A stretch of DNA of 64,000 bases from Candidatus Algichlamydia australiensis (GCA_033977065.1 JAXCHI010000004.1:284724-348723), one strand, 5' to 3'; shown: positions 2,170 to 49,025, counted from the stretch's first letter. Notes: a model not told the origin generated them from the sequence alone. Numbers and translations are program-made.

Positions 2170-2772
2170 TTAGATCAACTCTTGGCGGCGGATAATCGAT
2201 TGACCAAGCGTTCCCTCATCAATCCAATCAAGAGAACTTCCCATGGGAAGGCCGAGCGCGAGGCGTGTTACTTTAACATTTTCTTTTGCAAATTCTTGTT
2301 TGAGAAAAAGGGCAGTTGCATCTCCTTCAAGTGTGGCATCTAATGCGATGAGCAGCTCTTTTACACACTCTTTTTCAATGCGTTTTTTTAATTGCTCAAG
2401 TCCAAGTGTATCAGGTGTTTTTCCTTCAACAGGTGAGAGAAGACCATCAATCACGTGGTAAGCCCCTTTGAATGAACGGGTCGCTTCAATGGCAAATGCA
2501 TCTCTTGGGCTTGAAATGATGCAAAGTATATCTTTTTCTCGATAGGGAGCGTGGCAGGAAAAACAGCCCTTTTCACTTAACATCAAGCCGCACTCGCTGC
2601 AATGCAAAATCTTTTCTTGAATTTTGGCAATGGTCTCGCCAAAATCTTTGAGCTGGGTCGCATCTTCCTTTAATAGGTGAAAGGCGAAACGTTCAGCGCT
2701 CTTCTGTCCAACGCCGGGAAGTCGTTTAAGATGGGTGATTAAAATTTTTAATTCTTGCGGATAGTTCTGCAT
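2170..2772 (-). CDS. recR: Recombination protein RecR
   Basis: 200 aa. N-terminal HhH region (LKRLPGVGQKSAERFAFHLL), a C4 zinc finger (CSECG...CFSC) and a Toprim-like C-terminus. Confidence 0.95.
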   Translation of the reverse strand: MQNYPQELKILITHLKRLPGVGQKSAERFAFHLLKEDATQLKDFGETIAKIQEKILHCSECGLMLSEKGCFSCHAPYREKDILCIISSPRDAFAIEATRSFKGAYHVIDGLLSPVEGKTPDTLGLEQLKKRIEKECVKELLIALDATLEGDATALFLKQEFAKENVKVTRLALGLPMGSSLDWIDEGTLGQSIIRRQELI

Positions 2773-2830: not shown

Positions 2831-3829
2831 ATGTGTTCTACAAAAGCGAGAATCGTTGCCACGGGCGCCTATCTACCAAGTAAAATTTTGACTAACTGTG
2901 ATCTAGAACAGATGGTTGAAACTTCAGATGAGTGGATCACAACCCGCACGGGAATTAAGGAGCGTCGTATTGCTCATAATGAAGAGTTTACCTCTGACAT
3001 GGGGCTTAAAGCGGCTCAAGAAGCAATCGAAAAATCAGGGCTTTCTCCTGAAAAAATCGATCTCATTATTCTGGCTACGCACACACCGGATCACTTCTTT
3101 CCTAGTACTGCCTGTATGATTCAAAAAGAGCTTGGTGCTGTGAATGCTGCCGGATTTGATATTCAAGCGGCGTGCAGTGGCTATCTCTATGGGCTCTCTA
3201 CAGCAAAATCATTTATTGAATCAGGCGCATATAAAAACATTCTTTTAGTCGCTTCAGAAAAGCTCTCTTCAATTATTGATTATGAAGATCGCAACACCTG
3301 TGTCCTCTTTGGTGATGGCGCTTCGGCTGCTATTATTAGCCATGAAGGGGCTGGGTTACAAATTCCTCACATCTGTCTCGGCTCTGACGGCCAGCAAGAA
3401 GACCTCATTAAACTTCCTGCTGGTGGTTGCCGCAAAGTTGCCTCCCGTGAGAGCATCGAGTCGCGCGAGCACTTTCTCCGCATGGAGGGAAGAGAGGTAT
3501 TCAAACACGCTGTGCGCCGTATGGAGCAAGCGGCAAATGAGTGTTTGGAGCATGAAGGACTCACAGATAGCGATGTCAATTGGCTTATCTCACACCAAGC
3601 GAATATTCGTATTATAGACGCAATGGCAAAACGTTTTTCTATTCCTGCTGATCGCGTCTATAAAACCGTTCATAAGTATGGAAATACTTCATCATCTTCA
3701 GTGGGGATAGCCCTACATGAGCTCCTGCAAGATGGCGCTGTAAATGAGGGAGATCGTCTCCTTCTCGTCGCTTTTGGTGCGGGATTAACCTGGGGCGCAG
3801 CCCTACTTGAAAAGAGGTCAAATGGGTAA
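2831..3829 (+). CDS. fabH: 3-oxoacyl-ACP synthase III (FabH)
   Basis: 332 aa. Active-site Cys context IQAACSGYLYGL and a HQAN motif. First gene of a fab operon. Confidence 0.95.
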   Translation: MCSTKARIVATGAYLPSKILTNCDLEQMVETSDEWITTRTGIKERRIAHNEEFTSDMGLKAAQEAIEKSGLSPEKIDLIILATHTPDHFFPSTACMIQKELGAVNAAGFDIQAACSGYLYGLSTAKSFIESGAYKNILLVASEKLSSIIDYEDRNTCVLFGDGASAAIISHEGAGLQIPHICLGSDGQQEDLIKLPAGGCRKVASRESIESREHFLRMEGREVFKHAVRRMEQAANECLEHEGLTDSDVNWLISHQANIRIIDAMAKRFSIPADRVYKTVHKYGNTSSSSVGIALHELLQDGAVNEGDRLLLVAFGAGLTWGAALLEKRSNG

Positions 3830-4781
3830 GAAAATTGCCTTTATTTTCCCCGGACAGGGAGCGCAGTACCCAGGTATGGGGCGCGATTTTTATCACCAAT
3901 TTCCAGAAGTGAAAGAGATGGTGGACCGTGCAGATGAAATTCTCGGTTACTCTCTATCGGAAATGATTTTTGAGGGTTCGTCTGAAGATTTGAAGCAGAC
4001 ACGCTACTCACAGCCCGCGATCTTCATCACAAGTCTTGCTATTCTTAAAGTTATTCAAGATAAGTTCCCAGTACTTGTTCCAAGCTATACTCTCGGGTTG
4101 AGTTTAGGAGAGTACACAGCGATGGTTGCAGCAGGCATTCTCCCATTTGAAGAGGGACTAAAGCTTGTTCAAGCGCGAGCAGATGCAATGCAGAAAGCCT
4201 CTGAAGCAACACCCGGAACGATGGCAGCAGTGCTCGGATTAGATCCCGATTTAGTCGAAGAAGTTTTAGAGAAGATGCGTCCTGACAATGCGATCTGGAT
4301 TGCAAACCTGAACTGTCCCTCACAAGTTGTTATAGCGGGAACAAAAGAAGCTGTTGAAGCTGCTAATGAACCCCTCATAGAAAAAGGAGCCAAACGCGTT
4401 GTTCCTCTTAACGTCTCTGGAGCTTTTCATACGCCACTTATGCAGCCAGCTGCAGAAGAACTTGGGCAAAAAGTTGAATCAGTCACCCTTCATCAAAGTG
4501 AAACGCGCCTTCTCATGAATGCGGCGGGTGATTTTGTTGAAGACCTCGATGAAATGCGCAAACTCCTTCTTGAACAGGTGATGCAGCCCGTTCTTTGGGA
4601 AAAGTCGATTCATGCTGTGATGGAGCAGGGGATCGATCTCTTTTTAGAAGTTGGCCCTGGTAAAACTCTTTGTGGTATGCTCCGCAAAATCAATAGAGAG
4701 CTCAACACTCTCAATGTAGAAAATATCGAAGATCTCGATCGCCTAGAAGAGTATTTAATCTGTACCGTGGAGAAACAATGA
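3822..4781 (+). CDS. fabD: Malonyl-CoA:ACP transacylase (FabD)
   Basis: Motifs FIFPGQGAQY and GLSLGEY. I prefer ATG 3822 (preceded by aaagagg; ATGGGTAA overlaps the fabH stop) over the track's TTG start at 3807. Confidence 0.93.
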   Translation: MGKKIAFIFPGQGAQYPGMGRDFYHQFPEVKEMVDRADEILGYSLSEMIFEGSSEDLKQTRYSQPAIFITSLAILKVIQDKFPVLVPSYTLGLSLGEYTAMVAAGILPFEEGLKLVQARADAMQKASEATPGTMAAVLGLDPDLVEEVLEKMRPDNAIWIANLNCPSQVVIAGTKEAVEAANEPLIEKGAKRVVPLNVSGAFHTPLMQPAAEELGQKVESVTLHQSETRLLMNAAGDFVEDLDEMRKLLLEQVMQPVLWEKSIHAVMEQGIDLFLEVGPGKTLCGMLRKINRELNTLNVENIEDLDRLEEYLICTVEKQ

Positions 4782-5503
4782 AGAGACTTGAAGGAAAACG
4801 CGCTCTTGTTACAGGCGGCACCTCTGGAATTGGCAAAGCGATTGCCTTAAAATTTGCAGAAGCTGGTGCTGATGTGACAATCTTAGGCACTAATAAAGAG
4901 CGTGCAGAAGCGACTCTCAAAGAGCTAAAAGAGATCTCTTCAACTCAAAATTTTTCTGCAAAAATCGTCAACCTTTCCCAACCCGAAGAGATTCGCGCCC
5001 TTGCAAAAGAGATTGAAATTGACATCCTTGTCAACAATGCAGGCATCACTCGGGATAAACTCTTTATGGCGATGAAGGAGGATGACTGGAATGAAGTGAT
5101 CAACGTCAACCTCAATGCAATCTACCACCTCACACACGCCTTTATCAGACCTATGTTGAAAAACAAGGGAAAAATCATTAACATCTCCTCAGTAAGTGGA
5201 TTGAGTGGCAACCCGGGACAAGCTAATTATTCAGCTGCAAAAGCTGGTCTGATTGGCATGACACGTACACTCGCTCGCGAGTTGGGAGGAAAAGGCGTTA
5301 CAGTCAACTGCATCGCTCCCGGTTTTATCACAACGCCGATGACAGACAAACTTAATGAAGCGCAGCAGCAGGCAATCCTATCGAGGATCCCGCTTAAACG
5401 CTTTGGAAAACCAGAAGAAATTGCCCAAGCAGCCCTTTTCCTTGCGACTGCTGACTACATTACTGGTCAGACACTTGCAGTAGATGGAGGCATGCTGGCC
5501 TAA
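4778..5503 (+). CDS. fabG: 3-oxoacyl-ACP reductase (FabG, SDR family)
   Basis: Motifs [12 protein letters not shown] and YSAAKAG. Its start overlaps the fabD stop (ATGA). Confidence 0.93.
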
Positions 5504-5531
5504 GCTATTATTGATAACAAAGGAAAAACCT

Positions 5532-5765
5532 ATGTCCATGGAAAAAGAAGTAATCGACATCGTAGTGGAACAACTTGGTGTTGAAGAAGCAGAAGTAAAC
5601 GTTGAAAAGCGTTTTGTTGAAGATCTGAATGCCGACTCACTAGATCTTACAGAGCTGATTATGACTTTTGAAGAGAAATTCGGCCTAGAAATTGCTGAAG
5701 GTGAAGCTGAGAAGCTGAAGACCGTTGGCGATGTAGTGACCTTCATCGAGTCAAAAAAGGCTTAA
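5532..5765 (+). CDS. acpP: Acyl carrier protein
   Basis: 77 aa with the DSLD phosphopantetheine attachment motif ([13 protein letters not shown]). ATG 5532 is preceded by aaggaaaaacc. The track ORF starting at 5484 overlaps fabG and is too long. Confidence 0.95.
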
Positions 5766-5782
5766 TTTAAATTTTTTATTTT

Positions 5783-5817
5783 AAAACCCAAGTACGAGCT
5801 GTGCTTGGGTTTTTTTT
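5783..5817 (+). terminator. Rho-independent terminator downstream of acpP
   Basis: Stem cccaagtac / gtgcttggg with loop gagct, followed by a run of 8 T. Confidence 0.65.
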
Positions 5818-5820
5818 GAA

Positions 5821-5849
5821 TTGATTTTTTAATATAGTCTTGATAGTAT
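5821..5849 (+). promoter_or_regulatory. Candidate sigma-70-type promoter of Inc-like paralog 1
   Basis: TTGATT, 17 nt spacer, TAGTAT. The same architecture is conserved upstream of paralogs 2 and 3. The RBS aggaga lies 7 nt before the ATG. Confidence 0.4.
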
Positions 5850-5872
5850 TGTCCGAAAAATAGGAGAATACT

Positions 5873-7336
5873 ATGGCGAGCTCGGTTCATTCAATAAGTA
5901 ATTTAACATCATCTTTCAGAGGTTCTCAAGGACTTTTACCCCTCTCAACTTTGCAGAAAGCTGTGCAAGTGGCACCTGTAGGAATCAACGCAGGTCTTAC
6001 CGTATATAACCAACACAAAAGTACTCGGTTCTTTGTTTTTTCTCTACTTACAACGGTTGTCTCTTCACTAACAGTCTCCTCAAACAATACTTATGCCATT
6101 GGCGCTAAATTTACCTTAACAGCTGCAAACATCGCCCTCACAGTCCTTACAAAAAGTTCTCCAGTTAGAAATAAGAACCTAATTTCTCAGCAACTACCGC
6201 CACGTATCGCAAATACCGCAGAGATTCCAAATACAGCTAGCGGGTCAACTCAATCTACAGAAGTGTTGGCGAGAAAACTAGAAGAGTTTTACTCTTTTGA
6301 ATATGGTGACTCAGGATTCGAATTTGATAGGTGTAAAGCTGAACTCCAAACATTCATCGAAGGCCTCTCACCTAGGATGAAATTGGAATATTTTGCGGCA
6401 GCTCTTTATGCTCCTAATACTCCTATGATCAAAACAGCAATTGCAATTATTGGATATGAGAACAAAGACACTATTGAAGTTGATACTTATGGTACTGATA
6501 TTCTAGCTCCTATTCCTAATAACAGAAGAAATACTCTTTTCACACTTCTGGATTCTATTGCCAGAGGCAATCGGTTTAACGGACAAGGTGAACAAGTAGA
6601 CTTTGCTCTTGTTGGTGAACAAGTAGACTTTGCTCTTGTTGAGGATATATTAAAAAGCCTTTTTGAGCTGGAAAAGCAGAGTGGTCAAAGATATTTTAAT
6701 AGAAGTTATTGCAGTGTCTCATTGCTTGAAAAACTGAATGGTTTACCTCCTCAGCTTATTCTTTCCTGTCTTGAGAATGAAGATTTGGATCTTTGCAACC
6801 CTCAAGATCTATTTCCACAATCAGTTGCAAAGTTATTAGCTTATCTTCTTTCTCAAACGAGAGGAAATGTGGCTGAAGAGGTCACTAATCTCTATTCGTG
6901 TATAGAAAAATTCATTCAATTAGGCCTTGTTGAGTTTCTTTCTAAACAACAGCATGATAGCAGAGCGGTAATGGAGGGGTTAGATTCTGTATTTTACGCA
7001 ACAAATGCTTCGTTAACCGCTTTGGATACTCAAAGTTTTGAAAAAATTATTTTGGAACTTCTTGATCTAGCTAAGTTTAATAAAGATTATTGTCATAATT
7101 TTATGTTGAACTCTCTTCGATACAAAAAAGAAAACATTATAAAAGAAATTTTTAATCAAGAACCAGATAGTGTTTTTGGATTAGATATAAAATATTATAT
7201 TGAGCAACTAGAAGATACTCCTCTTAAGGCAACTATGCTTGAGCACTGGGAAAAGGGTACCGATGATCAGAAGAAACTAGAGAAGGGTTTTCTAGGTGGT
7301 TGGGCTGATGATTCGGATGGTGATTCGGATATGTAA
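5873..7336 (+). CDS. Hypothetical membrane protein, Inc-like (bilobed hydrophobic domain), paralog 1 of 3
   Basis: 487 aa. Two roughly 20 aa hydrophobic segments are separated by a short loop (FFVFSLLTTVVSSLTVSS-NNTY-AIGAKFTLTAANIALTVL). The C-terminal motif HWEKGTDDQKK is shared with paralog 2. No enzyme motif is visible. Confidence 0.75.
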   Translation: MASSVHSISNLTSSFRGSQGLLPLSTLQKAVQVAPVGINAGLTVYNQHKSTRFFVFSLLTTVVSSLTVSSNNTYAIGAKFTLTAANIALTVLTKSSPVRNKNLISQQLPPRIANTAEIPNTASGSTQSTEVLARKLEEFYSFEYGDSGFEFDRCKAELQTFIEGLSPRMKLEYFAAALYAPNTPMIKTAIAIIGYENKDTIEVDTYGTDILAPIPNNRRNTLFTLLDSIARGNRFNGQGEQVDFALVGEQVDFALVEDILKSLFELEKQSGQRYFNRSYCSVSLLEKLNGLPPQLILSCLENEDLDLCNPQDLFPQSVAKLLAYLLSQTRGNVAEEVTNLYSCIEKFIQLGLVEFLSKQQHDSRAVMEGLDSVFYATNASLTALDTQSFEKIILELLDLAKFNKDYCHNFMLNSLRYKKENIIKEIFNQEPDSVFGLDIKYYIEQLEDTPLKATMLEHWEKGTDDQKKLEKGFLGGWADDSDGDSDM

Positions 7337-7421
7337 AAATCCCTCTTTCCATATGAGGAGAAAGGAGGTAACAACTTAATTTTTAAAATCTGAGTGCAAG
7401 CCGTGCTTGAGTTTTTTTAGG

Positions 7422-7450
7422 TAGTTTTTTTAATAGAATCCTGATAAAAT
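7422..7450 (+). promoter_or_regulatory. Candidate promoter of Inc-like paralog 2 (duplicated module)
   Basis: TAGTTT, 17 nt spacer, TAAAAT. It aligns with the 5821-5849 module and is followed by the RBS caggagaatacc-ATG. Confidence 0.35.
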
Positions 7451-7473
7451 CATTTGCTAGACAGGAGAATACC

Positions 7474-8559
7474 ATGTTAAATCCGCTAAAGTTAACAAAT
7501 GATTTTACTCCAGCCCTTAAAAAGCCTTTGGAGTCTTTTTTTCCAACTTTTCTCAAGACAGCTAAAGTGGCACCGCTTGTAATCAACATAGGCTTTACAG
7601 GTCTTAACTTGTGTAGTCAAAGTAAGCAAATTTTCGCGTTCTCTTTAGCTACAACTCTCTTTTCCTCATATGCCATAACATCAAAAAACACTTACGTAAA
7701 TGCGGCAGCAGTTACTCTCACAATTGTGAATCTTGCTCTTTCCTGTTTTCCAAAATCTTTCGGGGTAAGTCACCAGCCACCAAAAAATAGGCAAATAGAA
7801 GATCAGCAAACTGAAAACCAAATGAGAACAACAGAAGGGTGGTTTGCTGATATTGAGGAATTTATGCCCAAAGGAGAAAACATAGACGAAGGAAAAGCTG
7901 CAAAATTTCAAAAGTTTATCAATCGCCTCAATCCAACAGAGAAGTTAGAATATTTTCTAGCAGCATTGAGTAACGGGTTTGAAGAAGAAGCAGTAAAAAT
8001 TCTTGGGGTTGATTGGTTTGGGGATGAAGAGAACGTAGCCGATCTATTTACTCGCCTCTTAGATAAAGCGTATCAAAGAGAACACAGCCTGGAAGTCATC
8101 ACTTCTTCTATTAAAACAATATTGGAACAACTGGTTTCTAATAAAGATTCCATTTTCGATATTTTGAAGAATAACGAAGAGTTTTGTAATAAGTTCCATG
8201 GATTGATAGAAGAGCTAGAAATAGATTGTATAGATGGAAGTGGTACACGCAACTTAAGTGCTAAAGAAATAAAAGAAAATGAAGATTTCGTCATAAGCTC
8301 TTTGAATCTCTTTAAATTTAAACAAGAGGATTATAAATTTTCCATTGTTAAAGCTGTTCTAGTGCATAAATGGAGAGTGCTAGAAAAAATCTTTGAACTT
8401 AAGCCAGATTTAGTTTTTGAAAAAGATGTTCTTAATATATTTTTTCACCTTGATGAAGATTCTGAGTTGAGGCAGAAGGCATTTGCTCATTGGGAAAAGG
8501 GTACTGATGAGCAAAAAGAATCGTCGAAAGAAATCATGAATCGCCGTTCTAAAAAATAA
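7474..8559 (+). CDS. Hypothetical membrane protein, Inc-like, paralog 2 of 3
   Basis: 361 aa. Bilobed hydrophobic region IFAFSLATTLFSSYAITS-KNTY-VNAAAVTLTIVNLALSCF. It shares FQKFINRLNPTEKLEYFLAAL and HWEKGTDEQK with paralog 1. Confidence 0.75.
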   Translation: MLNPLKLTNDFTPALKKPLESFFPTFLKTAKVAPLVINIGFTGLNLCSQSKQIFAFSLATTLFSSYAITSKNTYVNAAAVTLTIVNLALSCFPKSFGVSHQPPKNRQIEDQQTENQMRTTEGWFADIEEFMPKGENIDEGKAAKFQKFINRLNPTEKLEYFLAALSNGFEEEAVKILGVDWFGDEENVADLFTRLLDKAYQREHSLEVITSSIKTILEQLVSNKDSIFDILKNNEEFCNKFHGLIEELEIDCIDGSGTRNLSAKEIKENEDFVISSLNLFKFKQEDYKFSIVKAVLVHKWRVLEKIFELKPDLVFEKDVLNIFFHLDEDSELRQKAFAHWEKGTDEQKESSKEIMNRRSKK

Positions 8560-8577
8560 AGTTTTGCTACTCATTTT

Positions 8578-8646
8578 TTAGAGATTGCTGAAGACGAAGC
8601 TGAAAAGCTAAAGATCGTTGACGATGTAGTGATCTTCATTAAATAA
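8578..8646 (+). pseudogene. Relic of the 3' end of acpP (last ~22 codons), duplicated with the Inc-like gene unit
   Basis: tta gag att gct gaa gac gaa gct gaa aag cta aag atc gtt gac gat gta gtg atc ttc att aaa taa aligns with acpP 5689-5751. By eye about 53 of 63 nt match. It would encode LEIAEDEAEKLKIVDDVVIFIK versus [22 protein letters not shown]. There is no start codon and no upstream ACP sequence. Confidence 0.8.
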
Positions 8647-8701
8647 AAAATGTAAACTTATTATTTAAATCTGGAAAAAGCAATTTTTAGGAGGGTATTT
8701 C

Positions 8702-8730
8702 TTGTTTTTTTAGTATTGTCTTGATATAAT
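8702..8730 (+). promoter_or_regulatory. Candidate promoter of Inc-like paralog 3
   Basis: TTGTTT, 17 nt spacer, TATAAT. It aligns with the promoter modules at 5821 and 7422. Confidence 0.45.
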
Positions 8731-8752
8731 ATTAATATATTTAAAATTATAT

Positions 8753-9667
8753 ATGATTGATTCAATAAGTTTGGTAAAAAATTATTTAATTCGTTGGATT
8801 CCTTCTCCTACCACACATCTAACATGTGCGGTATTTAAAAAAGTGGCAGAAACATCACCACTAATAATTAATGGTTGCATCTCCTGTAAAAGCTTAGATA
8901 GTAAAAAATTTACTTTTTCACTCTTTTCTACTCTTGTTTCGCCTCTATTTTACTGCAATAACAGCTATGCAAAAGGGTTTATTCTCCTGCTGACGGTAAC
9001 GAATCTACTGTTTCATAATTTTTTTACAGGTAGCCAAGCAAAAACAAATTTTGTCTCTAAACCTGCGGTTCCTAAAAAAAATGAGGGGATAGGACAGGCC
9101 GGTGTAGATCAAATAGGCACTGTTGGGGTAGTCAGACTTTCTCGATCAGAAACGAATTCTGTCTCTAAACCCGCGATCCTTGAAAAAAATGAGGGGACAG
9201 ATAAAAATTCAGAACCAAATAAGGGGATAGGACAGGCAGATCCAAAAGATCTTTTCTCTGAGAGTGAGAAAGAAATTTTGAAACAGATTGATCCGTCACG
9301 TTTTGAACAATTTTTTAATGGTGAAATCACCGAGGCTGAGAAGCAAGTAGTTTTCGATTTTAATAGAAAAACAAATAATGCTTTATTCAATCGATTTTTA
9401 GTTCAACTTTTCAAGTATAGAGATGGGTATCCCTACCAAAATAGTTTCAGCTCAGAGTCAGAACTTCCTACTAATTTAGATAGTTTGATCTGTTCATACG
9501 ATCACGACAAATTTGCCACAGAAGAAGAGCGAAAAAGAATCTTTAGCAATACAAGATCCTTTGTAGAGAAATTTATTCACACTCGACTCAAAGGGCTGGA
9601 TGACTACGAAGAAGTTATTGCTCAATCAGTAGAGAATGCTGATTGGATGGAACAGCTAATTAAGTGA
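8753..9667 (+). CDS. Hypothetical membrane protein, Inc-like, paralog 3 of 3 (most divergent)
   Basis: 304 aa. Bilobed region FTFSLFSTLVSPLFYC-NNSY-AKGFILLLTVTNLLFHNFF. It contains an internal imperfect repeat (SKPAVPKKNEGIGQA / SKPAILEKNEG...GIGQA). Its 3' end overlaps tag convergently by 46 nt. Confidence 0.7.
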   Translation: MIDSISLVKNYLIRWIPSPTTHLTCAVFKKVAETSPLIINGCISCKSLDSKKFTFSLFSTLVSPLFYCNNSYAKGFILLLTVTNLLFHNFFTGSQAKTNFVSKPAVPKKNEGIGQAGVDQIGTVGVVRLSRSETNSVSKPAILEKNEGTDKNSEPNKGIGQADPKDLFSESEKEILKQIDPSRFEQFFNGEITEAEKQVVFDFNRKTNNALFNRFLVQLFKYRDGYPYQNSFSSESELPTNLDSLICSYDHDKFATEEERKRIFSNTRSFVEKFIHTRLKGLDDYEEVIAQSVENADWMEQLIK

Positions 9668-10194
9668 TCATTGACAAGGCCAACAGCCTGCATAAATGAG
9701 TAAATTATAGTGGGTCCAACAAAGGCCATACCGCGCTTCTGTAAATCTTTTGCTATCGCAGTGCTAATGTCTGTTTTGCAAGGGACATCTTGAGAGTTTT
9801 TCCACTTATTGACAATAGGTTTATAGTCGACATACTTCCATAGATAAGAATCAAATGAGCCAAACTCTTTCTGAATTTTAAGAAAAATTTGTGCGTTTTG
9901 GCGAGCACTAAAGATCTTTCGTCTATTGCGAATAATTGCAGGATTTAAGATGAGGTTCTCAAGATCTTGATCAGACATTTTTGCTACAGTTTCTGGATCA
10001 AAGTTATGAAAGTGTTTCCGGTAAGCTTCTCGTCTTTTCAGTATGAGTTCCCAGTTTAAACCTGCTTGAGCGCCTTCTAAAACTAGCATTTCAAAAAGGT
10101 GTCTGTCATCGTGAACAGGGATACCCCACTCTTCATCGTGGTACTTGGCGTACAATTCTTTTCCGGGGCCATCCCCAAAGCATCGTTTTTTCAT
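9622..10194 (-). CDS. tag: DNA-3-methyladenine glycosylase I
   Basis: 190 aa. The motif YHDEEWGIPVHDDRHLFEMLVLEGAQAGLNW is typical of Tag. Confidence 0.9.
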   Translation of the reverse strand: MKKRCFGDGPGKELYAKYHDEEWGIPVHDDRHLFEMLVLEGAQAGLNWELILKRREAYRKHFHNFDPETVAKMSDQDLENLILNPAIIRNRRKIFSARQNAQIFLKIQKEFGSFDSYLWKYVDYKPIVNKWKNSQDVPCKTDISTAIAKDLQKRGMAFVGPTIIYSFMQAVGLVNDHLISCSIQSAFSTD

Positions 10195-11246
10195 CCTTTA
10201 ACTTCTATCCAGAGTTTACGGCTCTCTTCTTCAGGCATAAGGTTTTGTATAAAGTGGAATTTTTTCCCATTCCGTTTGTCAAGCTCACTCATCAACCAGT
10301 GGTAGCGATCAGAGAACTCTAAGTCCTCAACGATCGTCTCTGTAGGCGGAAGGTTACACCACGTGTTGCACTGATTGATGAGATTCTCTTTTTCATAAAG
10401 ATGGTTTATGAAAGCGTAGGTAAGCTCTTCCTTGTCACTTTTTTGTGGTAAGGCAAGACTCTCTATTGAGGTAAAGATGGGACCTTCAGGAAGGACAAAG
10501 TCGACATGGGGAGCATCTTTTTCCATACGCCAAAGGTAGTAGTGTTGGGCAAGGGCAAGAGAGCAGTTGCGTGTTGCTAGGAGATAGTCGGCTCGCACTT
10601 CTACGTAAGCCTCCACAAACTCTTTTTGCGAGAGAAGAACTTCTTTGACTTCGGCTATTTGGTGCGGAGTCAGAGATTTTACTGGCCCATAGAGGTAGAA
10701 GGCGGCAAAATTAATCGCTTCGATGGGATCGTTGAGCATTACAATTCGCTTCTCGGAGTTAAAAATTTGGTCGTAGGTAAGGTGGGGCAGTGGAAGATCT
10801 TCTTTGTTAATTCCAAAACCGTAGACAACCCATTGAAGGGGAATGGAGTAGTTGTTTTCTGGGTCAAAGGCGTGTCCAAGAAGGCGAGGATTGAGGCTTT
10901 TATAAAAAGAGAGTTTACTGCGGTCAATTTCTTTGAGTAAACCCTCTTTTTTTAGAAGCGGTATTGCGTAGTCAGACGGGATAATCAGGTCAAAACCTCT
11001 TCCTTTTGTCGCCTTCATTTTCGTGAGCATCTCTTCGTTCGAGCCATAGCAGTGAAGACGCACCTTTGCATGATACTTTTCTTCAAAGGAGTGAATGGTT
11101 CGTTCATCGATAGAGTCAGCCCAGCCAAAGATGTGTAGGGTGTTGCTACTATCCCCTTTAAAAAGGAGGATCTTGGGCCATGAGAGGAGGAGAAAGGAGG
11201 CGGCTACCCAGGCAGTGATGGAGAAAAATTTATAAAAACCGCGCAT
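10191..11246 (-). CDS. potD: Spermidine/putrescine ABC transporter substrate-binding protein
   Basis: 351 aa with a signal anchor and PotD-like motifs (YGSNEEMLTKM, FDLIIPSDYAI). Last gene of a 4-gene ABC operon. Confidence 0.82.
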   Translation of the reverse strand: MRGFYKFFSITAWVAASFLLLSWPKILLFKGDSSNTLHIFGWADSIDERTIHSFEEKYHAKVRLHCYGSNEEMLTKMKATKGRGFDLIIPSDYAIPLLKKEGLLKEIDRSKLSFYKSLNPRLLGHAFDPENNYSIPLQWVVYGFGINKEDLPLPHLTYDQIFNSEKRIVMLNDPIEAINFAAFYLYGPVKSLTPHQIAEVKEVLLSQKEFVEAYVEVRADYLLATRNCSLALAQHYYLWRMEKDAPHVDFVLPEGPIFTSIESLALPQKSDKEELTYAFINHLYEKENLINQCNTWCNLPPTETIVEDLEFSDRYHWLMSELDKRNGKKFHFIQNLMPEEESRKLWIEVKG

Positions 11247-12022
11247 CAGTAGATCCTCGTTCGTATTTTTGGAGAGAAGAAGAGAAGCACAAGGAGGGAA
11301 CTAAGAAGCAGCAGAAGGGTAGAGAGGGCGTTTACAACGGGTGAGATGCCTTGGCGGATCATACTGAGAAGATAGAGAGAGAGCGTTTGTATAGAATTAC
11401 CAGCACAAAAATAGGAGAGGATAAAGTCATCGAATGAGATGACAAAGACAAGCAGTCCAGTAGCGATAAGAGAGGGACGTAAAAGGGGTAAAGTAATTTT
11501 GAAAAAGGTTGTCCAAGGAGTAGCACCGAGATCAAGTGAAGCCTCTTTTAGCTTGGGATCAAGATCGCTATAGCGAGTGTAGAGGATGGGGATAGCAAAG
11601 CCGAGTCCTAAGATTGTATGAGAGACGATGAGTGTGGGCATGCCGAAAGGGATATCAAGCAGAGAGAAGTAGCTAAGGAGACTAACAGCAAGAACGGTCT
11701 CTGGAACGATGAGTGAGCCAAAAAAGAGGGGGAGAAGGCGTCTCCCTTTCTTACTCCCACTATCCAAAAAATAGATCAGCAGTGTGCTTAAAAAAAGACT
11801 TAAAAGAGTGGTGATACTAGCAATTTTTAGAGAATTAAAAAATGATTCCCAAAGGTCGTAGGAGCGGAAAAGTTCACGGTACCAGTTCAGTGTAAAGCCG
11901 TGCCAAGGTGCTGGAAAAGTTTTTGTGTTAAATGAGAAGGCCACAAGCACCAAGATAGGGAGATAGAGGAAGAGAAATGTTCCGAAAACATGGAGTTTGT
12001 GAAGCGCCTTTTTCCTGATCAT
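11246..12022 (-). CDS. potC: Polyamine ABC transporter permease
   Basis: 258 aa polytopic protein with the EAA-loop motif EASLDLGATPWTTFFKITLP. Confidence 0.82.
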   Translation of the reverse strand: MIRKKALHKLHVFGTFLFLYLPILVLVAFSFNTKTFPAPWHGFTLNWYRELFRSYDLWESFFNSLKIASITTLLSLFLSTLLIYFLDSGSKKGRRLLPLFFGSLIVPETVLAVSLLSYFSLLDIPFGMPTLIVSHTILGLGFAIPILYTRYSDLDPKLKEASLDLGATPWTTFFKITLPLLRPSLIATGLLVFVISFDDFILSYFCAGNSIQTLSLYLLSMIRQGISPVVNALSTLLLLLSSLLVLLFFSPKIRTRIY

Positions 12023-12876
12023 CGCAACCTCACAATAGTTTTATTGATTTTTTTAAAGAGGATATAAAATCCGCCAGAGAAGAGAAGAAGAATAATCGAG
12101 CTGACAACAGTGAAAGCAGCACCCATTCCTTCAGTATGTTCTCCTAGAATATATTGTGAGATGACGTTGCCAACAAAGTAAATGCGGTCGCCTCCCATAA
12201 GTTCAGGGATCACAAACTCACCAAAGGCAGGAATAAAGACGAGGAAAAAGCCGGTGCGGATGGCGGGAAGCGAGAGGGGAAGCATGATGCTGCGAAAAGT
12301 TTGTTGAGGGGTAGCGCCAAGGTCAAGGGAAGCTTCGATAAGTTTACTGTCGAAGCGCTCTAAGCTAGCGTAGATGGGAAGGACCATAAAGGGGAGATAG
12401 TAGTAAACCATCATGAGCATGGTTGCAAAAGGAGAGTTGAGCAGGTGAAGGGGTTCAGAAGTGATCCCCAAATTTAGTAAGAGGTTGTTGAGAAACCCTT
12501 GACGTTCAAGAACAAAAAACCAGGCGTAGATGTGAAGCAAAAAGTTGGTCCAAAAGGGAACAATCAACATGAAGAGAAGGAGGCTTTTGATTTTTTTGGC
12601 GTAGAAAGCCATATAGTGGGCAAGGGGATAGGCGATGATTAAAGAGATCCCGGCTGTTAGAGTGGCAATGCCAAGCGAGTTCCCAATAATTTTAAAATAG
12701 ACAGGTGAGAGAACGGCAGAAAAATGGCTGAGAGTGAGCCCAGCAAAATAGCCTTCCCCAGATAAGCTCATAACACTAGAAAGAATCAAAAGAAAAAGAG
12801 GAATGTAGAAGAAAAGAATTTGCCAGATAAAGGCGCCTGAACCGAGGCCGAATGGAAGAGTGCTGCTTTTTTCCAT
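12019..12876 (-). CDS. potB: Polyamine ABC transporter permease
   Basis: 285 aa polytopic protein with the EAA-loop motif EASLDLGATPQQTFRSIMLP. Confidence 0.82.
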   Translation of the reverse strand: MEKSSTLPFGLGSGAFIWQILFFYIPLFLLILSSVMSLSGEGYFAGLTLSHFSAVLSPVYFKIIGNSLGIATLTAGISLIIAYPLAHYMAFYAKKIKSLLLFMLIVPFWTNFLLHIYAWFFVLERQGFLNNLLLNLGITSEPLHLLNSPFATMLMMVYYYLPFMVLPIYASLERFDSKLIEASLDLGATPQQTFRSIMLPLSLPAIRTGFFLVFIPAFGEFVIPELMGGDRIYFVGNVISQYILGEHTEGMGAAFTVVSSIILLLFSGGFYILFKKINKTIVRLR

Positions 12877-12879
12877 GCC

Positions 12880-13974
12880 TCAATGCTCCAATAGTACGAC
12901 ATTTTCCCGTTGCCAGTAGAGGTAGACCTTATCGTCATAATCGATATCCTCATGCGGAAAATGCTCTTCATTCTGTTCAAAAACTTGCAGCATTGTACCG
13001 CTTCCAAGCTTCACGTTATACTGCGTTGATCTGCCGTAATAAACGATCGACTGCACACTGCCTTCAACTTGATTGGAAAAATCTTTTGCGGGCTTTTTAG
13101 AGATAAAGATTTTTTCTGGTCTCAGGCTCATCACTACGCTCCCTCCATTGGCCATCCAAGGTTTTTTCTGCGGTACATAGACCTTTAAGCTACCGAGTCC
13201 CTCTACCTCAACTTCAGGGTCAAGCTCAATATTGCGCATAACCCCGTTTAAAATATTTGTTGTTCCAACAAATTTTGCAACAAATGAGGAGACGGGAAAT
13301 TCATAAATCTCTTTTGGTGTACCAATCTGTTCGATTTCGCCATCAGAATTCATAATGGCCATCTGATCGGCTACAGTGAGCGCCTCAAACTGGTCATGGG
13401 TGACGTAGACAAAAGTTGTTTTGAGCTTGTCCTGCAGCTCGATTAACTCAACAAGCATCTTCTCGCGAAGTTTATAATCGAGTGCTGCAAGCGGCTCATC
13501 GAGAAGAAGAACATCGGGCTCGTTGATGATGGCGCGACCAATCGCCACTCGCTGCTGCTGGCCTCCTGATAGCTCTGATGGAAGTTTCTCTACCTGTTTT
13601 TCCAAGTGAAAAGCGCGCACAATACGCATCACTCTTTTTTGAATTTCATCCTTGGAAAGTCCCTGAATGACAAGGGAGTAGGCGATGTTGTCAAAGACGT
13701 TAAGGTGCGGGAATAAAGCATAATTTTGAAAAACAATATGAATACGACGTTTATTGATCGGAAGGTGTGTGATCTCCTTTTCTCCAATCGTAATCGTTCC
13801 GCTATCGACCTCCTCAAAGCCGCCAATGAGGCGCAAAAGCGTGGTCTTACCGCAGCCGCTTGGGCCGAGAAGAGCAAAAAATTTGCCAGAGGGGATAGTT
13901 AAGTGAATTTTTGAGAGGATCTTCCCGCTGTTGCCGTACGATTTTGTTACATTTTTCAAGTTAATGCTTCGCAT
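12880..13974 (-). CDS. potA: Polyamine ABC transporter ATP-binding protein
   Basis: 364 aa. Walker A GPSGCGKTT, signature LSGGQQQRVA, Walker B LLLDEP, and a C-terminal TOBE-like region. Confidence 0.88.
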   Translation of the reverse strand: MRSINLKNVTKSYGNSGKILSKIHLTIPSGKFFALLGPSGCGKTTLLRLIGGFEEVDSGTITIGEKEITHLPINKRRIHIVFQNYALFPHLNVFDNIAYSLVIQGLSKDEIQKRVMRIVRAFHLEKQVEKLPSELSGGQQQRVAIGRAIINEPDVLLLDEPLAALDYKLREKMLVELIELQDKLKTTFVYVTHDQFEALTVADQMAIMNSDGEIEQIGTPKEIYEFPVSSFVAKFVGTTNILNGVMRNIELDPEVEVEGLGSLKVYVPQKKPWMANGGSVVMSLRPEKIFISKKPAKDFSNQVEGSVQSIVYYGRSTQYNVKLGSGTMLQVFEQNEEHFPHEDIDYDDKVYLYWQRENVVLLEH

Positions 13975-14158
13975 TCTGCTATTTTACTCTTTCAAGGCAA
14001 TTTTCATAAACAGTAAATATTTTCTTACACGTTTAATATTTGTAAAATGTTTTATTTGTTTTTTAATCTATTAAGATGGTTCGTTTTTTTGAAAAATATA
14101 TAGGTTTCTATGTTAAAGACTGTCTTTGAATTAAATGCTCAAAGTTCATTCGTTGGCA

Positions 14159-14322
14159 ATGAACCTATCCAACTAAACATGCTTTTGCCTTTTTCCAGAT
14201 TTTTGGCTGGATTTTGAGCTATTTTTTCAAACAACTTAATTAAGTTGTTTTCAAAAAGATCCCAAAATCCTTCTCAAAACTGAGAAAAAATTTCAAAAGC
14301 AGCTTTAGTTGGATAGGTTCAT
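14159..14322. repeat. 164 bp long imperfect palindrome (MITE-like or structured element) in the potA / trxB divergent intergenic region
   Basis: The terminal arms atgaacctatccaactaaa...gcttttg and caaaagc...tttagttggataggttcat are reverse complements. The centre aacaacttaattaagttgtt is a perfect palindrome. The interior arms pair imperfectly. Confidence 0.8.
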
Positions 14323-36446: not shown

Positions 36447-37382
36447 ATGAGTAATTCAATAGATCGTTACGATGTTGCAACATACGCACTAAATCTTGGT
36501 TTTGCTGCCGCGTCTGCTTGCGAGCACTCCCGTATAGGCAATGTATTAAGTAAATGGCGTATAAGTTTATTACTACTTGGAGCAACAACCTATGCTTTTA
36601 ATTATGTCCAATTTATTAGGACATTGTCCGATGACTTAAAAGATCAATTTAATCCTCACAAAAGCGAAGTCGATAACGATTTTTTTAAGTTCTCGCTTGC
36701 AATTACACCTATTTTTGCCGCTTTCTTGCTTCCAGTTGCTTGCCATTATTTGGGAAAGAGAGTAACTCACGCATTTCCTAGGGTTCAGTTGCAAGCGCCT
36801 AAGGGCTGTACTGCAGAATGGCTAGCTCCCTCTACATTTCACAACTTGGTTCAAGGATTTGCAGTGTCAAATGCACTTTTAAATCTTGCTGCAACTTTTG
36901 GTGGAAATGCGCACTCAAGATTATCTACAGGAGTTTTGTCTCTATTACACTTTGGCACAATACCTACACTTGCAAGTGGAAATCTAATTGAAGCGACTAC
37001 CACAAGAGATCATAGTGATGGAAAAACACAGTTCCTTTTCAGCTATATTTTTCGAGTAAAAAAACCTACTGATCCCTTGACCATAAGTGAAAGTGGTACA
37101 GTTTATTCCTATTCAAAAGTTATAGAAAATTTTTATAAAAATATTCAACAAATTAAACTTGATGATAGCACAGTTGAATGCTCTGAAAAAGCGATACCAA
37201 TTGTTGTTGGTGTGAATCCAACAATCACTAAAATCGTGAAATTGATTACCTATCACTTAACAGTTGCCAAAGACCTTATACCTGAAAAACTCAAAGGCTT
37301 TTCTCAACTCACTGCTTTTGTAAAAGATACGGGGCCCTTTGTTCCCAACGTCATCAAGGCAGCATCTATTGTGCCTTTGTAG
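36447..37382 (+). CDS. Hypothetical membrane protein, tandem paralog B
   Basis: 311 aa, with the same length class and N-terminal pattern as 35491-36432. Its RBS is ggaga. Its 3' end overlaps the uvrA 3' end by 17 nt. Confidence 0.6.
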   Translation: MSNSIDRYDVATYALNLGFAAASACEHSRIGNVLSKWRISLLLLGATTYAFNYVQFIRTLSDDLKDQFNPHKSEVDNDFFKFSLAITPIFAAFLLPVACHYLGKRVTHAFPRVQLQAPKGCTAEWLAPSTFHNLVQGFAVSNALLNLAATFGGNAHSRLSTGVLSLLHFGTIPTLASGNLIEATTTRDHSDGKTQFLFSYIFRVKKPTDPLTISESGTVYSYSKVIENFYKNIQQIKLDDSTVECSEKAIPIVVGVNPTITKIVKLITYHLTVAKDLIPEKLKGFSQLTAFVKDTGPFVPNVIKAASIVPL

Positions 37383-40300
37383 GTGAAATGATGTTTACTA
37401 CCTTTCCACCTTTCTCACCAGCTCCAGGCCCTAGCTCGATTTGGTAGTCAGCCGATTCGATGATATCGGAGTTGTGCTCGATCATAATAATGGTATGACC
37501 GCTATCGACAATTTTATGGAAAATTTTGAGGAGTTTTTCGATGTCGACACTGTGCAGGCCGATAGTCGGTTCGTCAAAGAGGTAGAGGGTGTGGCGTTTG
37601 GCTGGACGGACGAGTTCGCGAGAGAGACGCAGGCGCTGCGCTTCTCCGCCAGAGAGCGTTTGCACGCGCTGGCCTAAGGTGAGGTAGCCAAGTCCCACTT
37701 CTACTAAAACTTTTAGTGTCTTTTGAATTTTCGGAATTTTTGGGAGGAAGTCAATCGCTTCATTTACGGTGAGGTTGAGCAGTTGCCCGAGGTTTTTTCC
37801 TTTGTAGGTCACCTCAAGGGGAAGGGGAGCGAGGCGATTGCCATTACAGCTGTCACAGGTGATGGTCACAGCCGGCATTAGCTGTAGCTGGATTTTGCGT
37901 GTTCCCAGGCCCCAACACTTGCGACACATGCCTTTCATGTGGTTGTAGCTAAAATGGTAGGCTTTCAGGTTGCGCATGCGCGCTTCGGGTAGTTCAGCAA
38001 AAAAGCGGCGCAGAGGTGTAAGAAGATCGGAATAGGTGGTGATGTCAGCACGTGCAGTGTGTCCAATAGGAGATTGGTCAAGTGCAATGCATTTTTCGAT
38101 TTGCTTAAGCCCTGAGATTTTGCTTCCATGAATGGTAATGGTGTCGGGGGGTTGCCTATGCGTAAGCGCTTTTTCGACAGCTGGCCGTAGTAGGTGGTGC
38201 ATCAGCGTCGATTTTCCCGATCCTGAGACACCGGTAATGCAGGTAAAAATGTGCAGGGGAATGTCTAGAGAGATATTTTTAAGATTGTGCAGCGAAGCGT
38301 TTTCAATTTTTAAAACTTTTTTGGTAGGTTTGCGGTATTTGCAATCCACAGCGCTCTTTTCTCCAGAGAGGTAGGCGCCAGTAAGCGATTTCGGATCGCG
38401 TTTGATTTGCGCAATAGAGCCTTGTGCAATGATCTGCCCCCCTTTTTTTCCCGCTTCTGGGCCAAAATCGATGAGATAGTCGGCTGTGTTAATAGTAAGA
38501 GGGTCGTGCTCAACAAGAAGGAGAGTATTGCCGCTTTTACAGAGTTTTTTTAGTGCGCGGTTGAGTAGCGCGTTATTTTGCGGATGCAAGCCGATAGTGG
38601 GTTCGTCTAAAACATAGAGGCAGCCAGTTAGACCAGATCCAAGCTGACGCGCTAAATGAATGCGCTGTGTCTCCCCACCTGAAAGTGTAGGTGCGCTACG
38701 AGAGAGCGCGAGATACTCAAGTCCGATTTCCATCATAAATTTTAGGCGATGATCGATCTGCGAGAGCGTCTCATCGAGAAGGTTTTTCTTCTCTTTTGGA
38801 AGGGAGAGTTTTTTCAAGAATTGTACTGTTTGTGAGATGGGAAGCTCACACACCTCTGGAAGGGTTTTTCCTGCAACTTTTACCCCTCGTGCAAGGGGAT
38901 TCAAGCGCGCTCCGTTGCAGCTTGGACAGGGAGACTCGTCCATGTGTGGCAAGATCTCTTTGCGTAAATTATTTTTTGCCGCCTTTGCTCGCTTAGCAAA
39001 GAGCGTTTCAAAGCCGATCCATTTAAAAGAAATTTCTGCAAAAGTAAAGCTCTTTTCGCTACCTCTCATTAATAGTTTTTGCTGCTTATCTGAGAGGTCA
39101 CAGAGAGGGGTGTTGGGATCAATTTCTTCTTTTTCAAGAAATGCCTCAAAAAGCTCTAAAGCTTCATCAGAGAGACGATCTTTGCAGAGATAGTAGAAGA
39201 GTGTGATGGGAGGGCAACGCATGATTTTAGGAAAGCGAGTAAGATCTGCGCCCCACTGAATGCCAAGTCCCTGACAGTCAGGGCACATGCCCTCTTCAGA
39301 ATTGAAAGAGAAGGTGTGGGGTTTAATTTGGGGGTAGGAGCGTCCCGTTGAAGGAACCGCGAATTCTAAGTTAAAGAAAAGATCTTGATCATCAAGGGCT
39401 GCAATCAGTTTTCCTTCTCCACGCTCGCTCGCAAGGGAGACGGCCTCAAAGAGGCGTGGAGTGATGTCAGGTTTGATTACGATCCGATCGATGACAAGAT
39501 GGAACTCCTGTTTGACTCCGCGTGAGAAGGGGATTTCATCTTCCAAATCATAGGTCGTGCCATTGAGCCGCACGCGGCGAAACCCTTCTGCTTTGAGTCG
39601 CATAAGAAGAGAGGAAAAGTCTTCTCCATGCCGAAGAGTGAGTGGGGCTAAAATTTGCACACGCGTCTTTTCTGGAAGCTCTTGCAACTTCTTGCAAACA
39701 AACTCTTTGGTAATTGCTACAATTTTTTCACCCGTCTCAGGACAGAATGCTTCACCCAAATGCGCGTAAAGCAGGCGCAAATAGTCATAGACTTCTGTCA
39801 TGGTCCCAATCGTTGAGCGTGGATTGCCTGCGTGGCGCTTCTGTTCAATAGAAATTGCTGGAGATAGGCCCTCAATCAACTCTAATTTTGGCTTGGCCAT
39901 CTGCTTGACAAACTGGCGTGCGTAAGAGGGGAGAGACTCAATATAGCGACGCTGCCCTTCAGCATAAATTGTCTCAAAAGCAAGCGAACTCTTCCCCGAC
40001 CCAGAAGGTCCCGTACAAACCGTCATTTTGCCGCGCGGAATTGTGAGATCAATTCCTTTTAAATTATTTTGTTCTGCTCCCTTCACTACAATCTCTGTAT
40101 GCTTTGAGACTCTCTTTTTAGATGGTGCGCTGACTCTCTTTTTCTCCCCCAGCGCAATCCCAGTTGCCGTCTTTGCTTTGATGATCTGTTCCGGTGTGCC
40201 CTCAGCAAGAACATTTCCATCCTCCAAATCGATGACCCAATCGGCTACCTTGATCAAATCCAAATTGTGCTCAATAACAAGGACTGTATTGCCTTCGCTC

Positions 40301-44545: not shown

Positions 44546-44583
44546 TTTTCAGACTTTTTCAAAAAAAATATTATAATATCCCT

Positions 44584-44655
44584 AAAGCCAATCAATTGTC
44601 CCATTTTTAGCTGCAAATAAATTTTTTTAAGTTGGACCTTAGGACCTTCGCTCAT
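44584..44655 (-). pseudogene. Relic of the uvrA 5' end (first ~24 codons), duplicated with the LRR gene unit
   Basis: The minus-strand atgagcgaaggtcctaaggtccaacttaaaaaaatttatttgcagctaaaaatgggacaattgattggcttt aligns with uvrA codons 1-32, with a 24 nt internal deletion. The flanking promoter region is also duplicated. Confidence 0.8.
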
Positions 44656-44712
44656 AGAGGAAGTATAAGAGATTTCTGTACTTTTATGCGAATTTAGATT
44701 ATACTACTTCTT

Positions 44713-46281: not shown

Positions 46282-46445
46282 TTTTCAGATTTCCTAAAAA
46301 ATATTTTAATATCCCTAAAGGCAATCAACTTTCCTAGATTCAATTATAACGAAAGTTAGTGAATTCAGATCAGAAGAGCTTTAATCCTATTGGAAGTATT
46401 GGGAATCTCTATACTTTATTACAAGTTCATGTTAAAATGTTCTCT

Positions 46446-48310: not shown

Positions 48311-48311
48311 A

Positions 48312-49016: not shown

Positions 49017-49025
49017 AGACTTAAG

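Follow-up and report, generated by a model that had tools for sequence, protein, structure and literature searches.

Inclusion-membrane (Inc) proteins of the chlamydiae are recognized by a bilobed domain of two alpha-helical segments, each of 15–32 residues, with fewer than 30 loop residues between them (3–22 in known Incs; PMC3048545), called either from a Polyphobius or TMHMM prediction or as a hydrophobic domain of at least 40 residues on Kyte–Doolittle plots (PMC3048545, PMC3290821). Most Incs are orphans, and both their tandem expansion and the existence of inc hot spots are established (PMC3290821, PMC3048545). We describe three tandem genes, here p1, p2 and p3, that lie directly downstream of the acyl carrier protein gene acpP in a 64,000-nucleotide stretch of Candidatus Algichlamydia australiensis (GCA_033977065.1 JAXCHI010000004.1:284724-348723; hereafter the window, in which positions are counted from the first nucleotide) and that a sequence-only reading had taken for Inc-like genes. 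Ca. Algichlamydia australiensis Cla049 has a full type III secretion system (T3SS), forms single-cell inclusions and was, before any other chlamydia, shown to live within a photosynthetic host, a dinoflagellate (Maire et al. 2024, PMC11317633).

The array very probably arose by local tandem segmental duplication seeded at the 3′ end of acpP, a reading built on the gene fragment and the reiterated spacers that separate its copies. The wider explanation, in which a lineage-specific expansion in the slot between acpP and tag/potDCBA yielded type III secreted, Inc-like inclusion-membrane proteins, appears to us evenly poised, and the proposal that p1–p3 act in the manner of Inc proteins would be a tentative one, falling slightly short of even.

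Three orphan paralogues downstream of acpP

The three genes stand head to tail behind the fabH-fabD-fabG-acpP block, which is preceded by recR on the opposite strand; downstream of p3 follow tag and a set of potD/C/B/A-like ABC genes, all on the minus strand (Table 1). Their intact open reading frames (ORFs) of 487, 361 and 304 amino acids (aa) are tandem paralogues, as had been read from the sequence: p1 matches p2 from end to end (BLASTP 1e-20, 26% identity) except for ~120 residues inserted in p1, while p3 shares only residues ~22–95 with p1 (4e-6) and p2 (3e-5). The C-terminal two thirds of p3 are unrelated to the other two proteins and contain imperfect internal repeats (9039–9092/9147–9200 at 83% and 9079–9099/9217–9237 at 95%), which encode recurrent ...SKPA..KNEG.. 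and NKGIGQA motifs. The array is still visibly unstable, as p1 contains a perfect in-frame tandem duplication of 27 nucleotides (nt).

A second, independent assembly of this sample by Logan (L001, run SRR26803925) is 100% identical to window positions 3361–14187 (10.8 kb) and also holds the 27-nt duplication, and the array is therefore not an assembly artefact. The genes are on record: p1 is identical to the NCBI protein SNF33_07000 of this organism, and EFCAOE_07045, listed at contig_4:293476-294390 (915 nt, + strand; Table S12, PMC11317633), fits p3 exactly, which makes the window contig_4:284724-348723. Maire et al. 2024 (PMC11317633) assigned p1 and p2 (EFCAOE_07035 and EFCAOE_07040) to the species-unique orthogroup OG0010961 and EFCAOE_07045 to the singletons, regarded the three as hypothetical proteins whose AlphaFold models could not be used, and named no Inc proteins.

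Searches for relatives returned the proteins themselves. Both a p1 query and a three-protein profile found self-matches only in a word-indexed search of 5.8 billion clusters, as did the profile in an exhaustive HMMER pass over 1.84 billion representatives of ~15 billion proteins; one extra match, P0004, was rejected as a spurious repeat protein. Sequence searches of Pfam, NCBIfam and PDB gave no match above threshold for p1–p3, and weak matches to PspM/Rv2743c, ZSWIM and TsoY were rejected as compositional. The family is thus restricted to the Chlamydiae in these data, with no conserved prokaryotic domain (Pfam, NCBIfam) and no Sec-type signal, and orthologues with a known unrelated function, which would have spoken against an Inc-like role, were found in none of the protein, Pfam, NCBIfam or PDB searches. 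The Pfam IncA profile (PF04156) likewise had no match at E ≤ 1 in p1–p3; this model misses most Incs (Dehoux 2011, PMC3048545).

Selection has maintained the reading frames over a long period, since ORFs of 304–487 codons are intact, synonymous sites between the paralogues are saturated and the nonsynonymous divergence (dN) in aligned blocks is 0.42–0.66. The array has a GC content of 30–39%, against 43–46% in its flanks, and at its composition stop codons are expected about every 14 codons, so that 304 stop-free codons would arise by chance with a probability of ~1e-10 (our own arithmetic). That the array, or at least p3, is instead a decaying, functionless by-product of duplication could be argued from the same depressed GC content and the fresh 27-nt duplication, and above all from p3, which has neither a ribosome-binding site nor a terminator copy, converges with tag in a 46-nt tail-to-tail overlap (9622–9667) and ends in a repeat-rich, unalignable part. 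The start of p3 also differs by pipeline (NCBI GTG 8843, 274 aa, versus ATG 8753), which, with the missing Shine–Dalgarno sequence, counts against the wider explanation given above. Set against this, the three ORFs remain intact in AT-rich DNA despite synonymous saturation, dN lies well below the saturated synonymous divergence (dS), and a putative promoter box is kept in front of all three genes, with the best -10 hexamer at p3; we consider a by-product very improbable.

Reiterated DNA and the history of the array

The last ~24 codons of acpP (5686–5757) recur between p2 and p3 at 8579–8650 with 60 of 72 nucleotides identical (83%; blastn E 1.4e-16 within the 64-kb window). A decayed acpP copy had been proposed at 8578–8646, and the match stands far above shuffled controls, with a local alignment score of 84 against 16.9 ± 2.8 in 500 dinucleotide shuffles (z 24). 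The fragment lies in frame with the stop codon of p2, 28 sense codons separating the p2 TAA (8557–8559) from the fragment's own TAA (window 8557–8646), and stop-codon read-through would append SFATHFLEIAEDEAEKLKIVDDVVIFIK to p2; the shared frame may be chance (1 in 3).

The spacer between acpP and p1 is reiterated before p2. Counted from the acpP stop codon as far as the ATG, spacers 1 and 2 are 73% identical over 97 nt (E 4.5e-10, z 14.6) and share an identical ribosome-binding site, AGGAGAATAC. The acpP terminator itself folds strongly (-18.7 kcal/mol, z -5.6, reached in 0 of 200 shuffles). The proposed reiteration of terminator, promoter and ribosome-binding site before p2 holds for the putative promoter and the ribosome-binding site, whereas all that is left of the hairpin copy is a stem of 5 bp (-7.5 kcal/mol, z -0.5). 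In front of p3, the recognizable remains are the acpP fragment and a promoter box only: spacer 3 contains no terminator copy (similarity z 1.5; fold -3.4 kcal/mol, z +1.4) and no AGGAG ribosome-binding site, and to that extent the reiteration claimed for this spacer was partial.

The element common to all three spacers is a 25-nt box, TTGnTTTTTTAnTAnnnTCyTGATA, that starts at 5821, 7422 and 8702, before all three genes and nowhere else; no shuffle gave an equal match, and spacer 1 against spacer 3 reaches z 4.8. We read it as a putative promoter with an extended -10 element in each copy. This assignment of promoter activity rests on conservation of the box, because a consensus promoter scan returned sites no more numerous than in shuffles. 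No structured RNA in the spacers scored above threshold in Rfam; a Mu-gpT-DE match at 7439–7476, over the p2 5′ untranslated region and ribosome-binding site (26.3 bits against a gathering score of 49, E 0.007), was judged to be chance.

A tandem array is marked by paralogues arranged head to tail, by flanking DNA that recurs and by a piece of the upstream gene left at a junction, all of which are present here, and the acpP fragment with the promoter box before p3 and the terminator–promoter–ribosome-binding-site copy before p2 are hardly explained otherwise than by local segmental duplication. An acpP tail was also sought at the p1/p2 junction, in the C-terminal tail of p1 and the left part of spacer 2, and none was found (z -0.3). 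Since the tail is present before p3 and absent there, at least two left breakpoints are required, one inside acpP (~24 codons before the stop) and the other at the acpP stop codon. The ancestral gene would have lain just downstream of acpP, and with left breakpoints at or inside acpP each new copy would have inherited the post-acpP promoter, the fragment at 8579–8650 being the probable fossil of one such junction.

The ages of the parts do not agree. When polarized with the acpP of L003, the closest relative with data, 10 of the 13 changes fall on the fragment, two on acpP and one is ambiguous; they are mostly G-to-A and C-to-T with no synonymous excess, consistent with neutral decay at ~0.16 substitutions per site on the fragment's own lineage. 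The genes look far older. Conserved residues use the same codon in 5 of 21 positions for p3 versus p1, 7 of 24 for p3 versus p2 and 46 of 85 (54%) for p1 versus p2, where ~40–44% is expected at saturation and ~70% for gene copies as old as the fragment. By this comparison the fragment is several-fold younger than the paralogues it separates. This counts against a simple reiteration in a single event; additional events, or gene conversion, are needed to account for the array: either the fragment was repeatedly converted by acpP, or the junction was re-created by a later cycle of expansion and deletion. A young conversion patch running from the acpP tail to the -10 region was rejected as a clean account, as only the tail is well conserved (83%), the spacer adjoining the fragment being only 42–67% identical to spacer 1 (8579–8752 versus 5686–5872).

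The unit duplication proposed earlier, of acpP tail, terminator, promoter and gene together, thus survives in its tandem paralogues and reiterated DNA, but not as one repeated unit, given a p1/p2 junction without the tail and copies of different ages. The most economical order would be an older duplication with its breakpoint in acpP that split p3 from the ancestor of p1 and p2, followed by a later one with its breakpoint at the acpP stop codon that gave p1 and p2; this fits because p1 and p2 are the more similar pair and the fragment lies after p2. Later decay, probably with gene conversion or a second rearrangement, would have blurred the units. As to expression, the fab-acpP transcript would end at the strong terminator and each paralogue would form a separate transcription unit from its own extended -10 promoter, with p2–p3 read-through possible because the hairpin copies have decayed.

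The array resembles the Inc expansions and hot spots of C. pneumoniae, C. caviae and C. felis (PMC3290821, PMC3048545), in which tandem paralogues of low identity keep the position of the hydrophobic module and some copies lose part of it. It differs from them in that the junction is readable here as a fragment of the housekeeping gene upstream together with repeated copies of the putative promoter, and in that the family is confined to one genome.

A marginally hydrophobic hairpin and what it may do

Near its N terminus each protein has two moderately hydrophobic stretches of 18–20 residues joined by the loops SNNTY (p1), SKNTY (p2) and CNNSY (p3), whose four-residue turns NNTY/KNTY/NNSY are rich in Asn, a residue of high turn propensity, with Lys/Arg on both flanks. 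The p1 segments (51–69 and 74–93) and their equivalents in p2 and p3, with a four-residue loop, fall within the geometry of the Inc bilobed domain. AlphaFold2, run on the three-sequence alignment, likewise predicts an all-helical protein with helices at these positions in p1. The invariant helix positions are F54, F56, S57, L58, T61 and S64 in the first helix and L82, T83 and N86 in the second; S57/T61/S64 (i, i+4, i+7) and T83/N86 are confined to a single helical face, whereas it is the hydrophobic positions that vary, an inside-out conservation that would resemble the interfaces between membrane helices.

The likeness to Inc proteins (Dehoux 2011, PMC3048545; Lutter 2012, PMC3290821) extends to lineage restriction without a conserved domain, the predicted N-proximal helix pair with its Asn-rich turn and charged flanks, an alpha-helical remainder, a length within the Inc range and consecutive clustered genes in an organism with both a T3SS and an inclusion. 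In hydrophobicity the two differ, both lobes being far less hydrophobic than those of classical Incs or of other predicted Inc-like ORFs, nor is there any sequence relation to a known Inc.

Several measurements of the lobes weigh against an Inc assignment. Only one of the six lobes attains a Kyte–Doolittle 19-residue mean of 1.6 (range 0.9–1.6), and the best 18-residue Kyte–Doolittle pair scores 1.47 in p1, 1.32 in p2 and 0.91 in p3, compared with 1.8–2.3 for the polytopic membrane proteins of the window and 1.28 for the soluble FabD. We also estimated apparent insertion free energies (dGapp) with our own re-implementation of the Hessa dG predictor, calibrated on window proteins: permeases gave -1.7 to -3.6 kcal/mol and soluble enzymes mostly +2 to +5, in agreement with the ranges in PMC6110835, and the lobes of p1–p3 gave +1.3 to +2.6 each, nearer the soluble range than the peak of type III TM substrates. 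Predicted Inc-like ORFs at other chlamydial loci are more hydrophobic, with best segments of -2.8 to +0.9. Furthermore, the first lobe of p3 fails even a permissive test for two segments of dGapp <2.7 within 10 residues, and the AlphaFold2 model has a mean confidence (predicted local distance difference test, pLDDT) of 43.6, too low for fold comparison (42.3 and 34.0 are given for these genes in PMC11317633). The hairpin is accordingly marginal by our estimates, and standard thresholds would probably not call it transmembrane (TM). The Inc hallmark topology claimed for these proteins is therefore borne out in geometry, namely helices, turn and flanks, and is marginal in hydrophobicity, and the absence of a paired TM prediction, named beforehand as a ground for abandoning the claim, comes close to being the result under such thresholds.

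These values bring in the main rival, that p1–p3 are soluble proteins, whether secreted effectors or cytoplasmic, in which the helix-turn-helix is a packed hairpin of an all-alpha domain. It would account for dGapp values at the lower edge of the soluble range (PMC6110835), for a lobe mean of ≥1.6 in one lobe only, for a pair score like that of FabD and for the all-helical prediction of the remainder. The conservation pattern is the reverse of what a soluble core should show, being polar and one-sided with variable hydrophobic positions, and basic residues stand at both ends of the hairpin. Moreover, among 60 long window ORFs only p1, p2 and genuine membrane proteins have two segments of dGapp <2.7 within 10 residues, and none of ~45 soluble ORFs does. 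We rate a soluble identity as rather unlikely.

The positive flanks suit a further alternative, in which p1–p3 are unsecreted envelope proteins held as an N-in/C-in hairpin in the chlamydial inner membrane, as the positive-inside rule would predict for a cytoplasm-in hairpin; a weak, sub-threshold resemblance between the hairpin region and PspM/Rv2743c, a protein with two TM segments (Pfam E 0.02, NCBIfam E 0.13), points the same way. This we find improbable: every bona fide inner-membrane protein of the window is far more hydrophobic (-1.7 to -3.6), and at the low hydrophobicity of p1–p3 targeting by the signal recognition particle (SRP) and Sec would be inefficient (PMC6110835); a lack of relatives, fast divergence and growth in tandem are, besides, typical features of host-interaction genes and not of envelope housekeeping genes.

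Intermediate hydrophobicity has its own precedent, as secreted TM proteins are selected to stay under the inner-membrane targeting threshold (Krampen et al. 2018, PMC6110835). Type III TM substrates such as Tir, SseF/SseG and the translocators share with p1–p3 one or two sub-threshold TM-like segments and a polar, poorly charged N terminus (PMC6110835). The segments of p1–p3 are, in contrast, ~2–3 kcal/mol less favourable than the peak of such substrates at ~-1 kcal/mol (soluble proteins lie at +2 to +4; Krampen et al. 2018, PMC6110835), and no chaperone gene is evident beside the array. The first 25 residues are rich in Ser/Thr/Pro/Asn/Gln, their polar uncharged content ranking first, third and eighth among the 60 ORFs, with one charged residue in p1; such N termini are weak evidence, compatible with a type III signal.

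If p1–p3 do act as Inc-like proteins, their polar, poorly charged first ~25 residues would direct T3SS export, and the weakly hydrophobic hairpin would escape capture by the bacterial membrane and insert into the inclusion membrane, perhaps as an oligomer through its Ser/Thr/Asn face, leaving both ends in the host cytosol with the diverging helical C-terminal domains exposed there. The most specific form of this idea, in which hairpins too weakly hydrophobic for standard Inc predictors insert through a conserved Ser/Thr/Asn interface and oligomerization, in a family whose origin and diversification are peculiar to the one chlamydia known from infections of a photosynthetic host, strikes us as doubtful. 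Membership of p1–p3 among the Incs is plausible but unproven, and they should not yet be filed as an Inc family.

The acpP slot in relatives and neighbouring features

The position of the array is variable in related chlamydiae. In the Simkaniaceae loci L084, L086 and L087, whose FabD proteins are 52–55% identical to that of the window, lpxD-ompH-bamA-recR (-) and fabH-fabD-fabG-acpP (+) are followed, after a gap of 0.77–0.99 kb, by potD-C-B-A (-) and trxB (+); the same acpP–potD gap spans 4.4 kb in the window and holds p1–p3 and tag. The gene tag is absent from the slot in all three. In L003 (FabD 83%, JGI 3300003886) homology with the window at the nucleotide level runs precisely as far as the acpP stop codon and no farther, which makes the array specific to the Algichlamydia lineage; the next called gene there (3178–3456) appears, by eye, to encode a HigB/RelE-like toxin.

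In these relatives the gap is a short variable slot, often with unrelated hairpin-type ORFs. L084 (11081–11578, -) and L086 (11010–11513, -) have ORFs of 165–167 aa that are 44% identical to each other and whose moderately hydrophobic segments form two pairs, L087 contains an uncalled hairpin ORF at 11342–11758 (+) as well as a dodecin gene, and none of these hairpin ORFs has a Pfam domain. L024, L020 and L014, from other chlamydial orders, hold unrelated ORFs with strong bilobed blocks in the slot. The L084/L086 ORFs resemble p1–p3 in occupying the same slot, in being lineage-restricted without a Pfam domain and in their paired, moderately hydrophobic, Ser/Thr-rich segments. They differ in strand, in length and in having two hairpins, and homology was rejected (hhalign probability 0.4%); BLASTP of p1–p3 against the other slot ORFs gave no match.

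Counted over mechanical ORFs at 14 chlamydial loci, hairpin-type ORFs (two to four segments with dGapp <1 and loops of ≤30 residues) make up 5 of the 27 first two ORFs after acpP and 8 of the 220 others (Fisher p 0.0075), a count in which L084 and L086 are non-independent and p1 and p2 themselves lie below the hairpin-type threshold. There is thus limited support for recurrent use of the acpP slot by hairpin-type ORFs. The suggestion of an ancient Inc hotspot, prompted by the supposed nearness of incB/incC to this gene block in C. trachomatis, gains from the variable slot and this enrichment, but the occupants are unrelated to one another apart from the L084/L086 pair, and no incB/incC-like ORFs were found beyond the transporter-like genes of L010, L014 and L020.

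The window contains other tandem families. Three leucine-rich-repeat paralogues at 42995–47402 (516, 522 and 347 aa, 41–48% identical), each with an N-terminal TM-like segment, form the species-unique orthogroup OG0007647, annotated 'disease resistance protein' (PMC11317633), and here too spacer DNA recurs, behind the first and the second copy (TAATTTTCAGAyTT...AATATCCCTAAAGsCAATCAA). Three more tandem ORFs at 47618–49748 (230, 234 and 240 aa) are distant paralogues (BLASTP 4e-8 to 5e-4) with no Pfam match and one TM-like segment each at about residues 46–76, probably the singletons EFCAOE_07245-07255 (PMC11317633). On the minus strand, 37366–42936 encodes a double-length UvrA of 1856 aa with two complete UvrA domain sets.

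Table 1. Positions of the genes and sequence elements discussed in the text, numbered along the window.
Feature	Position	Strand	Remarks
recR	2170–2772	-	
fabH	2831–3829	+	
fabD	3807–4781	+	
fabG	4778–5503	+	
acpP (acyl carrier protein)	5532–5765	+	Pfam PP-binding 2e-12; gene call in L001; ends the fabH-fabD-fabG-acpP block
acpP intrinsic terminator	5783–5819	+	13–14 bp hairpin and T-run; terminator scan, RNA fold
Putative promoter box 1	5821–5849	+	TTGATT, 17 nt, TGaTAGTAT (extended -10); AGGAG ribosome-binding site 5862–5866
Paralogue 1 (p1)	5873–7336	+	EFCAOE_07035 / SNF33_07000; polar N terminus, all-alpha C-terminal part ending in HWEKGTD motif
p1 helix-turn-helix	6023–6151 (aa 51–93)	+	
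Tandem duplication in p1	6587–6640	+	perfect, 27 nt, in frame; GEQVDFALV twice
Spacer 2	7380–7473	+	copies spacer 1, starting at the acpP stop codon
Spacer 2, decayed hairpin	7397–7409		
Spacer 2, putative promoter	7422–7427 and 7442–7450		TAGTTT, 17 nt, TGaTAAAAT
Spacer 2, ribosome-binding site	7463–7467		AGGAG
Paralogue 2 (p2)	7474–8559	+	EFCAOE_07040; full-length paralogue of p1
acpP fragment, decaying	8578–8650	+	22 codons and stop, LEIAEDEAEKLKIVDDVVIFIK; in frame with the p2 stop codon
Putative promoter box 3	8702–8730	+	TTGTTT, 17 nt, TGaTATAAT; no hairpin upstream, no Shine–Dalgarno downstream
Paralogue 3 (p3)	8753–9667	+	EFCAOE_07045
tag (3-methyladenine DNA glycosylase)	9622–10194	-	Pfam Adenine_glyco 1.5e-79; right border of the acpP slot
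potD/C/B/A-like ABC genes	10191–13974	-	

The array leaves current understanding intact, since inc hot spots and the growth of Inc genes in tandem are familiar. The family itself is new and genome-specific, though of a known kind, and two of its details stand out, a duplication junction readable inside an essential gene and a hairpin hydrophobicity below the acceptance of Inc screens. Whatever the function of p1–p3, the locus illustrates cleanly the way in which families of effector type grow in reduced genomes: a duplication that starts inside an essential upstream gene would carry the promoter along and leave a dateable pseudogene fragment, and the differing ages of fragment and genes hint that gene conversion, or else repeated rounds of expansion and contraction, took place. 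Should p1–p3 prove to be a secreted inclusion-membrane trio, they would be candidates for host-specific adaptation to the dinoflagellate and the first candidate Incs for an algal inclusion; marginally hydrophobic hairpins would then escape current Inc screens, and the Inc repertoires of environmental chlamydiae would be systematically under-counted.

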